Assembly (NCBI GenBank): GCA_964554435.1
Contig: CAZKOO010000004.1
Coordinates: 2,116 to 66,115, forward strand
Direction of reading: 5' to 3'
DNA length: 64,000 bases
From: an uncultured Candidatus Peribacteria bacterium
Lineage (GTDB): Bacteria; Patescibacteriota; Gracilibacteria; Peribacterales; Peribacteraceae
Shown: positions 46,937 to 50,039 of the stretch, one piece after another
Layout of the letters: each line of letters opens with the position of its first letter
Numbering within the stretch: position 1 is the first letter of the stretch
Made by a program: the position numbers and the translations under genes
The notes under the pieces: generated by a model
The model's input: only the letters and a program-made list of their open reading frames with translations
Databases searched by the model: none
What the model was told of the DNA's origin: nothing

Positions 46937-47122
46937 CTAGGCTTGAATCTTTGTAATCTTCTTCAGAGCCTTTGTTGCTTTGCTCTTCAACGCAACAGGA
47001 CCAGCATAGGGAGATGCTGACAATTCTGTCAAACGCTTGACTTCTTCTTGAAGATACACAGAATGACGACGATTGCTTCTATCTTTACTGAGCCGCTTTT
47101 TGGGGGTGGGTTTCTTAGCCAT
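46937..47122 (-). CDS. Small basic protein, possibly S20-like
   Basis: 61 aa. KKRLSKDRSNRRHSV resembles the S20 N-terminus, but the ORF is shorter than typical S20. Confidence 0.35.
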   Translation of the reverse strand: MAKKPTPKKRLSKDRSNRRHSVYLQEEVKRLTELSASPYAGPVALKSKATKALKKITKIQA

Positions 47123-47942: not shown

Positions 47943-48008
47943 AGGAAAAATGATAGGACGTTTTGTGGAAAATACAAGTTGTTTCATCATCATTTTTCTG
48001 CTATAATA

Positions 48009-48866
48009 ATGAGATTTATGCGCATTCTTCGCGTTTGCCAGTGGCTTCTAATTCTTTCTCTGTTCATTCTCATGCCAGACAGCGTTCTGGCAGGGCCAGG
48101 TGCTATTGCCTTTCGCGACTTCGTGCAAAATCGCATCATTAGTCAAGCTTTAACAGCATTTTATGGCATTACCGCTGTGGGAGTGTTCTATCTTGGGCTC
48201 AAAACTATCGTTGAGTCAGATAAAGAAGACTCCTATTCAACGCTCAATAATGCCACTCTTACCATGTTTATTGGGTTTGGCATCATTGCAACAGCATCCA
48301 TTTTTGCCAACACGTTCACAAGCAGTGGATTTAGTTCAGATGTTGTGTCGAGCATCAATCTGTCTGGCTTAACAGGTTCCATTTATGATGTTGGTCGATT
48401 CTTACGAAACCTTTCATTTGCACTGTTTGTACTGATGATTACGCTTGCAGGCGTGCAAATTGTGTCCAATCCGGGAGATGAAGGCACTGTCAGTTCTCAG
48501 AAAAAAATTCTTACTGGAAGTTGTATTGGTGTGATGATCATGCTCATTGCACAAGCCATTGTGACAAGCGTGAGCTCTACAAGCCCCAATGCCATTCTCA
48601 CCGAACTCGCGGGCATTGCGCAATTTACACTGACATTTATCGGCTTTCTTGCTGGTGCTGCCCTTATTCTTGCGAGCATCTTTCTTATTGTTTCCATCGA
48701 TGAAGGACTTCAAGGAAAAGCCAAAACCATCATCATTGAGACACTCATTGCACTCCTTGTTACCATTGTTTGTTACGGTATCATCCGAACATTTGTGCCA
48801 GAAAATACATTTGTCACATTCCTGATGCACACAATTGCACAACATCCTACCACTCTCTGTACATGA
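48009..48866 (+). CDS. Polytopic protein built of three VirB2/TrbC-like (T4SS pilin-like) modules
   Basis: Signal peptide followed by three TM-loop-TM units with acidic turns (VESDKED, SNPGDEG, VSIDEG), each followed by a K-containing helix and a second TM. Confidence 0.5.
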   Translation: MRFMRILRVCQWLLILSLFILMPDSVLAGPGAIAFRDFVQNRIISQALTAFYGITAVGVFYLGLKTIVESDKEDSYSTLNNATLTMFIGFGIIATASIFANTFTSSGFSSDVVSSINLSGLTGSIYDVGRFLRNLSFALFVLMITLAGVQIVSNPGDEGTVSSQKKILTGSCIGVMIMLIAQAIVTSVSSTSPNAILTELAGIAQFTLTFIGFLAGAALILASIFLIVSIDEGLQGKAKTIIIETLIALLVTIVCYGIIRTFVPENTFVTFLMHTIAQHPTTLCT

Positions 48867-49669
48867 CTTCTTTTGTGATACTTCTTGGCTTTTTCAGTAC
48901 TTTCCTTGTGCCATTTTCTGTGAGCGCAAATGGTACTGACATCTCCAACATTGCAACGGGATTTATTACAACGCTCCTTCCTATTTGGATTCCTGTTGCA
49001 GTCATTGCTATTGTGATTGCAGGGTTTACACTGTCCATTTCGCGCGAAGAAGGCGCAATGGATAAAGCACGCAGTCAAATTATTCTTGTCGTGATAGGGG
49101 GCATGATCATCACCGTTCTTCTCACAATTGGGCCAACAACATTTATCGGAAAATTTTACAATGGAACAATCAATAATACAAATGCCATTCTTTCTGCACC
49201 AAATTTCATCGAATTTGAAACAATTGGTATTGCAGAGTGGATTATTACGATCATTGCTGCCATTGGCATTCTCATGATCATCCTCTCTCTTTTAGAAGCT
49301 GTCACAAGCCTTGGCGATGAAGGTGCATACACAAAAGTGCGCACTGCTGTCCTCAATGTGACCATTGGACTCATGATCATTGTTGCTGCAAAAGTCATTC
49401 GTACGACCTTCTTCCCACTCAATGGAGGTGTTGCCAATCCTGCGCCACTCATGCTCTATGTCATGGGAAAAATAACAATCATCCTCAATTTTATTCTTGT
49501 GATTGCCGTTGCCATTATTATTTACGCTGGCTTTCGCATGGTTGCAAGTTTTGGCAATGAAGATGATTACAATAACGCAAAATCCCTTGTCTTTCGTGTA
49601 CTGACGGGCATTCTTGTACTGCTTGTTAGCTACTCATTGGTACAGATTGTCATCCGTATTTTTTCATAG
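48863..49669 (+). CDS. Paralogous triple pilin-like module protein
   Basis: An ATGA overlap joins it to the previous gene. Modules: IAGFTLSISREEGAMDKARSQI, LEAVTSLGDEGAYTKVRTAV and YAGFRMVASFGNEDDYNNAKSLV. Confidence 0.5.
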   Translation: MTSFVILLGFFSTFLVPFSVSANGTDISNIATGFITTLLPIWIPVAVIAIVIAGFTLSISREEGAMDKARSQIILVVIGGMIITVLLTIGPTTFIGKFYNGTINNTNAILSAPNFIEFETIGIAEWIITIIAAIGILMIILSLLEAVTSLGDEGAYTKVRTAVLNVTIGLMIIVAAKVIRTTFFPLNGGVANPAPLMLYVMGKITIILNFILVIAVAIIIYAGFRMVASFGNEDDYNNAKSLVFRVLTGILVLLVSYSLVQIVIRIFS

Positions 49670-50039
49670 AATATCACCTGAAAATCGTACCTCTTCGTGA
49701 TGTACCTGATGATGCTAGGATGTATGGATCATTCATGATGTCATTCTTTTTCTTGTGTCAGCGTCTTAGAACTCTATTCTTGTTTCTTACTCATTGTTCT
49801 ATGCTATACTTCCATTTGTATGTTCTCATTTTGGAAAAAAAAGGAAGAAAAAAAAGACAATCAATTTATGAAAAAAATGATTGTTGGCTTTATTATTGGT
49901 GGAGCTATTAGCTCTATTGTTGGGAAAAAAGTGCTCGATGAGAGAAGAAAAAAACATTATGGAGAGAAGGAGGGCGAACTGAAGAATGAAGAATAACAAT
50001 AGGCACTACCACCCACTACTCACGTATAGCCAAAAGCCA

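Follow-up and report, generated by a model that had tools for sequence, protein, structure and literature searches.

A coupled pair of paralogous Peribacteria proteins, each built from three T4SS_pilin-like modules

By combining profile searches, structure prediction and genome comparison, our analysis brings into view two adjacent genes, here called A and B, in a 64,000-nucleotide stretch of DNA (the window) from an uncultured Peribacteria bacterium, which encode paralogous membrane proteins, each consisting of a signal peptide followed by three two-helix modules related to the pilins of type IV secretion systems (T4SS). The identity and architecture of A and B are secure. We posit, with confidence that stands about evenly balanced between belief and doubt, that the two proteins are VirB2-like pilins, concatenated covalently and left uncleaved, which function together as an A+B unit within the T4SS-like apparatus of this lineage. 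The kind of protein is a known one, the VirB2-like pilins that Patescibacterial T4SS employ in multi-gene arrays. Absent from the literature searched are the fixed, differentiated three-module fusion, its occurrence as a coupled paralogous pair at a class-wide core locus, and the existence elsewhere of six-module A-B fusions and giant poly-pilins. The features of the locus, in window coordinates with the strand in brackets, are as follows.

48009-48866 (+): gene A, 285 residues; signal peptide, then three T4SS_pilin-like hairpin modules; alternative start at 48018.
48009-48092 (+): signal peptide of A, residues 1-28, ending between SVLA and GPG; from hydropathy, with a P...A-G site, cut between A and G, conserved among orthologues.
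48093-48332 (+): module 1 of A (A-M1), residues 29-108; PF18895 at 16.6 bits, and aligned to the other modules with hhalign.
48333-48584 (+): module 2 of A (A-M2), residues 109-192; loop SNPGDEGTVSSQKK; PF18895 at 31.0 bits.
48585-48863 (+): module 3 of A (A-M3), residues 193-262, loop SIDEGLQGKAK, plus a non-conserved tail of 23 residues; assigned with hhalign.
48863-48866 (+): ATGA start/stop overlap, the ATG of B lying over the TGA of A.
48863-49669 (+): gene B, 268 residues; signal peptide, then three T4SS_pilin-like hairpin modules.
48863-48928 (+): signal peptide of B, residues 1-22, ending between SVSA and NGT.
48929-49162 (+): module 1 of B (B-M1), residues 23-100; loop SREEGAMDKAR; PF18895 at 18.2 and TrbC at 18.3 bits; hairpin in the AlphaFold2 model.
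49163-49420 (+): module 2 of B (B-M2), residues 101-186; loop SLGDEGAYTKVR; PF18895 at 28.5 bits.
49421-49666 (+): module 3 of B (B-M3), residues 187-268; loop SFGNEDDYNNAK; PF18895 at 19.6 bits; AlphaFold2 hairpin.
48002-48007 (+): TATAAT hexamer read from the sequence, one base before the first ATG of A; a weakly indicated candidate -10 box.

A preliminary description of this locus had proposed two ATGA-coupled reading frames, each encoding a signal peptide and three repeats of one unit. Both proposals stand: lengths, coordinates and overlap are as claimed, and hydropathy, the stretches matched by the Pfam family PF18895 (T4SS_pilin) and the alignment of module against module agree on the repeats. 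A and B are co-directional, and Kyte-Doolittle hydropathy gives each of them an N-terminal signal-like segment, ending at a small-x-small site where signal cleavage is likely, and six hydrophobic helices.

Membership in the pilin family is carried first by the whole proteins, which both exceed the PF18895 gathering cut-off of 26.6 bits (A with 33.1 bits in two stretches, B with 42.3 bits in three). When the modules are cut out singly, A-M2 and B-M2 pass this cut-off by themselves, A-M1 and B-M3 have PF18895 as their top match below it, and B-M1 matches PF18895 and PF04956 (TrbC/VirB2; cut-off 27.9 bits) almost equally, in both cases below cut-off. PF18895 is the best or joint-best match for five of the six modules, in keeping with the resemblance to T4SS pilins first proposed. 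The exception is A-M3, which alone finds no Pfam match and aligns with A-M2, B-M1 and B-M3 at hhalign E-values of 1e-6 to 5e-8. A check of the modules one by one, as the preliminary description had recommended, therefore gives a divided answer: two modules exceed the PF18895 cut-off, three fall below it, one has no match, and the TrbC profile stays below its own cut-off throughout. The loop motif aG..x.S.G[DN]E[GD], earlier ascribed to every unit, is likewise clear in four of the six modules and degenerate in A-M1 and B-M1. Profile comparisons among the six module types mostly give E-values of 1e-5 to 1e-12, and at the level of sequence the repeat is more than chance.

The same assignment extends to the orthologues. 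PF18895 matches at E<=1e-3 were obtained for 22 of 24 orthologues of A and all 40 of B, while PF04956 finds only B-M1 in our pair and reaches that level in 4 of the 40 B orthologues. PF04610 (TrbL/VirB6) matches neither A nor B, and an NCBIfam search of the two proteins returned sub-threshold matches only. With three modules each, A and B lie outside the length of roughly 100-150 residues expected of a single-module pilin, within which the single-module paralogues of their own genome fall (105-147 residues). Finally, when the profile of the A family is compared with that of the B family, the two are collinear over 249 columns, which run from the signal peptide through module 3 (probability 99%, E 4e-18), and since this collinearity spans all three modules, A and B are paralogues that arose when a protein with its three modules already in place was duplicated.

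An AlphaFold2 model of B, built on a 40-sequence alignment, folds into three long antiparallel hairpins (H24-59/H63-98, H114-148/H155-183 and H195-228/H233-267) joined by low-confidence linkers, with a predicted local distance difference test score (pLDDT) of 76 and a predicted template modelling score (pTM) of 0.57; module 3 modelled alone is a confident hairpin (H8-42/H47-81, pLDDT 88.8). Hydropathy and these hairpins together give a signal peptide and, in each module, two hydrophobic helices around a short polar loop, and the hairpin-repeat topology that had been suggested is borne out by hydropathy for both proteins and by the model for B. The 'short K-containing helix' once placed between the two membrane helices does not appear; K/R residues lie instead at the start of the second long helix, with no separate helix. 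The loops are the best-conserved segments, with values up to 0.81 in the loop of A-M3, the top of the A family, and helices and loops never carry indels among orthologues. The inter-module linkers, 6-35 residues long, are the least conserved parts and hold no conserved motif. Such a pattern fits rigid units on flexible tethers outside the membrane, without a conserved processing motif, and the variable, motif-free linkers would lean weakly against cleavage.

The joining of modules goes further in nature than the A-B pair itself. In-frame A-B fusions (P0062/P0188, P0064 and P0078; 557-595 residues) carry six modules in a constant order, in which the A-M3 signature S[IV]DE[ST]LKDRA is followed by a degenerate remnant of the B signal peptide and then by three B modules. 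The P0062 fusion (L049:2762-4477) occupies the exactly syntenic A-B slot, and in about 10 of 56 genomes the B match lies within an open frame of 484-572 residues. These fusions provide evidence of the Rosetta-stone type for A and B acting together. Proteins of other lineages are homogeneous, with six or seven modules in P0063, P0075 and P0135 and closely similar modules in two giant multi-hairpin proteins, P0106 (1775 residues, at least ten matched stretches) and P0061 (820 residues); P0109 (1147 residues) and P0125 (966 residues), judged by length and stretch counts alone, join them as giants, the four having 5-10 stretches. Homogeneity of this kind suggests recent amplification within the gene. 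P0036 is a pilin triplicated independently and recently, with three near-identical modules, and lies three genes away from a gene for a type IV coupling protein, and the genome of A and B itself encodes a 199-residue two-module pilin within a three-gene pilin array. Taken together, the A-B fusions, the homogeneous amplifications and this two-module pilin indicate that fusion of pilin arrays is recurrent.

The neighbourhood of P0036 (L047:3700-9884), in another genome of the candidate phyla radiation, encodes that coupling protein (DUF8128 and T4SS-DNA_transf domains) and two proteins of cell-wall-binding or lytic type (DPBB_1, PG_binding_1), and looks like a compact T4SS-related neighbourhood. 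Separately, single pilin-like modules lie within open frames of 3034-3342 residues in other Patescibacteria (G253:C4:52075-52410, G223:C18:10178-10378 and G138:C1:501436-501630), where the hairpin may serve as the membrane anchor of giant surface proteins.

The host genome is a metagenome-assembled Peribacteria (Patescibacteria) genome (979 kb, 51 contigs) with a completeness rating of 100%. Within its family, the B profile found full-length matches over three modules in every genome of both a phylum-wide sample (7 of 7) and a class-wide one (16 of 16), and three-module matches of B type occur in 40 of 135 class genomes outside the family, spread over at least 15 other families, a few of them with an in-frame TGA. 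An A-type open reading frame of 229-281 residues lies directly upstream of B at all 25 loci, one of these frames, of 204 residues, being cut by a contig end. Across the rest of the phylum, whole-genome search with the B profile yields mostly single-module matches. Among 1.84 billion cluster representatives, searched without a filter, 15,160 matched at E<=1e-3, of which 734 reached E<=1e-10 and 107 reached E<=1e-30; among the best 150 representatives, about 120 are proteins of 255-322 residues matched in one stretch over all three modules. The gene order rpsJ-rnc-nusB-Bax1-I-A-B-folP-gmk holds at all 25 related loci and is kept in distant relatives in which B identity falls to about 35%, and the A-B pair is passed on vertically as a core locus in Peribacteria and related families. 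Reassignment of TGA, as in code 25 of Gracilibacteria, was considered for this genome and rejected: neighbours and orthologues have normal length under table 11, and the relatives lie in Peribacteria.

How far, then, does the T4SS of this organism bear on A and B? The preliminary description had noted that none of VirB4, VirB6 and VirD4 is nearby, and profile searches confirm that none is on the window's 68-kb contig. The search of the whole genome for T4SS ATPases that it called for finds both kinds on other contigs: a VirB4-like ATPase of 644 residues (C14:15494-17428; P-loop_TraG at 86.8 bits, AAA_10) and a coupling-protein (VirD4)-like ATPase of 901 residues (C6:40125-42830; TrwB_AAD_bind, T4SS-DNA_transf). 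VirB4 is present in all 31 family genomes and in 145 of 151 class genomes. According to two papers on Patescibacterial T4SS (PMC12102498, PMC12857230), these systems are related to monoderm MPF_FATA systems, and at their loci divergent VirB2-like pilin genes follow one another in tandem, 2-11 to an array; the T4SS and its divergent pilin array are essential in Ca. S. epibionticum, the sole strain genetically tested (PMC12857230).

Within our favoured reading, A and B would be Sec-exported membrane proteins, each with three VirB2-like hairpins in covalent series. Pilins of the VirB2 type sit in the membrane with both ends outside and the loop inside. Because each chain has one cleavable signal peptide and six helices, removal of the signal peptide would leave every hairpin in just this topology, with its ends and the variable linkers extracellular and the acidic/basic loop (D/E-E/D-G...K..K/R) inside. 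The chains would remain uncleaved, and A and B would co-assemble as a six-hairpin unit of fixed order and stoichiometry. That unit may be the pilin or a conduit component of a T4SS-like machine encoded on the chromosome, with the genes for its VirB4-like and VirD4-like ATPases at other places in the genome. A and B would then correspond, as in-frame fusions, to the divergent VirB2-like pilin genes that other Patescibacteria carry in tandem arrays. Homology is the sole ground on which we would tie A and B functionally to a T4SS. A bolder form of the same idea, which we consider unlikely, holds that the never-cleaved six-hairpin A+B unit polymerises into the Patescibacterial T4SS filament or replaces a missing VirB6 platform, and that the giant poly-pilins are pre-threaded pilus strands.

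Several observations weigh against our favoured reading. The locus sits among housekeeping genes, no T4SS genes were found near the A-B pair in any genome examined, so that guilt by association fails, and in seven single-contig genomes the distance from A/B to virB4 is 240-1090 kb. The genome also has a conventional three-gene T4SS_pilin array (147, 199 and 141 residues; C14:7823-9292) about 6 kb from the VirB4-like gene, so that the role of 'the' pilins does not require A and B. With VirB4 in nearly all class genomes and A/B in 56 of the 151, their co-occurrence is uninformative. Structural comparison gives no help: Foldseek matched the whole B model to generic helical proteins in the PDB (best E 0.74) and the model of its module 3 to generic helical hairpins with no pilin among them (best E 2.4), although a two-helix hairpin is so simple and generic that the test of the module is uninformative, and no pilin came up when PDB sequences were searched with profiles of the B family over its full length and of module 3. 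Small-x-small motifs, moreover, follow some second helices of A in orthologues (for example AFA before N, or A-V-A before D), as might sites of cleavage between modules.

A possible but rather unlikely alternative is that A and B derive from pilins yet act outside the T4SS as a 12-helix integral membrane complex of housekeeping function, for instance a channel, a scaffold or a factor in envelope homeostasis; a scaffold derived from pilins was one of two options in the preliminary description. At all loci the pair occupies the same place between Bax1-I and folP/gmk, with translation genes around it; it is never linked to virB4 and is inherited vertically as a core locus; a separate conventional array lies near virB4 in the same genome; and a fixed number of differentiated modules is what a folded polytopic protein would have. 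Against this, the pilin-family signature persists, with the loop motif clear in four of the six modules and both whole proteins above the Pfam threshold, AlphaFold2 predicts no confident compact bundle (pTM 0.57), and T4SS genes are generally scattered in the class according to PMC12102498, which would make missing linkage uninformative. That source describes T4SS components in Gracilibacteria as poorly clustered and VirB6 as scarce or absent, a statement that bears on a very unlikely second alternative, in which A and B are functional analogues of VirB6, their six-helix chains of pilin hairpins forming, in place of a VirB6 missing from this lineage, the membrane platform that assembles single-module pilins. 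PF04610 exceeds its cut-off in none of the 31 family genomes, all of which have VirB4, though this Pfam TrbL profile may miss a monoderm VirB6 of PrgH type; like VirB6, A and B are polytopic with six helices, and single-module pilins coexist in the genome. The two proteins have no sequence similarity to VirB6/TrbL, however, and the case is purely circumstantial.

A further alternative, already raised in the preliminary description and in our view quite unlikely, treats A and B as polyprotein precursors that are inserted by Sec, after which signal peptidase I or some other protease cuts each chain in the linkers on the outside to give three pilins of about 8 kDa, the fusion serving only to ensure a 1:1:1 supply. 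Known VirB2/TrbC pilins mature by proteolysis. The second helix of every module would be oriented in-to-out like a signal peptide, many orthologues have small-x-small motifs after A-M1 and A-M2, and the homogeneous poly-pilins P0061, P0063, P0075 and P0106, in which near-identical modules number from 6 to more than 10, resemble multi-copy precursors. Set against these are the linkers themselves, variable in length and sequence and in B without AxA, the signal peptide of B, which is degenerate rather than preserved in the A-B fusions, and the position-specific identities of the modules, which are kept across the class. We therefore retain, at the even confidence stated above, the uncleaved A+B unit as our favoured reading.

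Comparison with known systems places A and B closest to the Patescibacterial pilin arrays of Ca. Southlakia epibionticum ML1 and TM7x, with which they have in common the families PF18895/PF04956, the phylum and the arrangement of divergent pilin units side by side; as set out in PMC12102498 and PMC12857230, each array pilin has a signal peptide and one two-helix hairpin, and the arrays are chromosomal and without relaxase association. In A and B, in contrast, each protein joins three units in frame behind one signal peptide, and the A-B fusions join six; the locus is not near virB4, and module number and order are fixed class-wide. Like the diderm pilins VirB2, TrbC and TraA (PF04956), A and B have a signal peptide, two hydrophobic helices per module, a short charged loop and termini predicted outside, with a weak profile similarity (18.3 bits for B-M1; E<1e-3 in 4 of 40 orthologues). 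Unlike them, they have several modules, fall below the PF04956 cut-off, and show no detectable similarity to solved pilins; cyclisation, phospholipid binding and pilus formation would be hypothetical in their case. With VirB6/TrbL they share the character of a polytopic inner-membrane protein of at least five helices, in a role possibly vacant in a family whose genomes have no Pfam TrbL; in contrast to VirB6/TrbL, they are built from pilin repeats, show no sequence similarity to it and have no large extracytoplasmic loop domain. The Mbov_0395 family (NF045849) of Mycoplasma integrative and conjugative elements consists of small pilin-like proteins with two helices, from conjugation systems of wall-less or monoderm cells, and modules of both A and B match it at 17.8 and 17.9 bits, far under its 40-bit cut-off; its members, unlike A and B, are single-module proteins encoded on such elements.

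The start of A is ambiguous, as its orthologues begin at the position of the second ATG (48018; invariant M4), and its 23 C-terminal residues show no conservation among orthologues. The TATAAT hexamer was not called by a consensus promoter scan that required both hexamers; the scan for promoters and terminators was at background, with 7 sites found against 5.3 expected and no terminator. If the hexamer is a -10 box, the leader of the A transcript may be very short or absent. Uncertainty also attaches to where the divergent Bax1-I gene begins (47993). The neighbourhood encodes S10 (rpsJ), RNase III (rnc), NusB, a likely L32, the divergent Bax1-I, A, B, a small single-helix protein, FolP and Gmk. 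Between B and folP, the small Lys-rich single-helix protein (49820-49996, +; core VGFIIGGAISSIVGKK) has homologues of 51-59 residues near the A-B pair at four other loci (L019, L021, L048 and L049). The L32-like protein, between nusB and Bax1-I at several loci, is a basic protein of 61 residues (46937-47122, -; MAKKPTPKKRLSKDR...RHS) with no Pfam match at E<=1e-3.

The preliminary description was aware of no earlier account of a triple-fused pilin. We found no description of fused pilins in the literature searched; the passages on Patescibacterial T4SS available to us make no mention of them, and the original Peribacteria genome paper leaves the A and B genes unmentioned. Hundreds of such proteins are nevertheless present in public sequence data. 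They record the fusion of pilin arrays as a repeated event, whose products range from old, differentiated triples to homogeneous repeats of recent origin that reach 1775 residues.

Patescibacteria account for a large share of bacterial diversity, and the A-B pair speaks to the question of whether, and how, their monoderm cells make a pilus from several different pilins. Pilin units hard-wired in threes, and in sixes in the fusions, amount to a natural experiment in which stoichiometry and neighbour relations are fixed, and proteins of the A/B family are larger and easier to work with in expression studies, topology mapping and cryo-EM. An uncleaved, pre-linked unit, if true, would be a new mode of construction for a conjugative-type pilus, and would place geometric constraints on the order of divergent pilins, because neighbouring subunits would have to lie within reach of a linker. 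If A and B are instead not parts of a T4SS, pilin hairpins would have been recruited as the building blocks of a new polytopic membrane protein.

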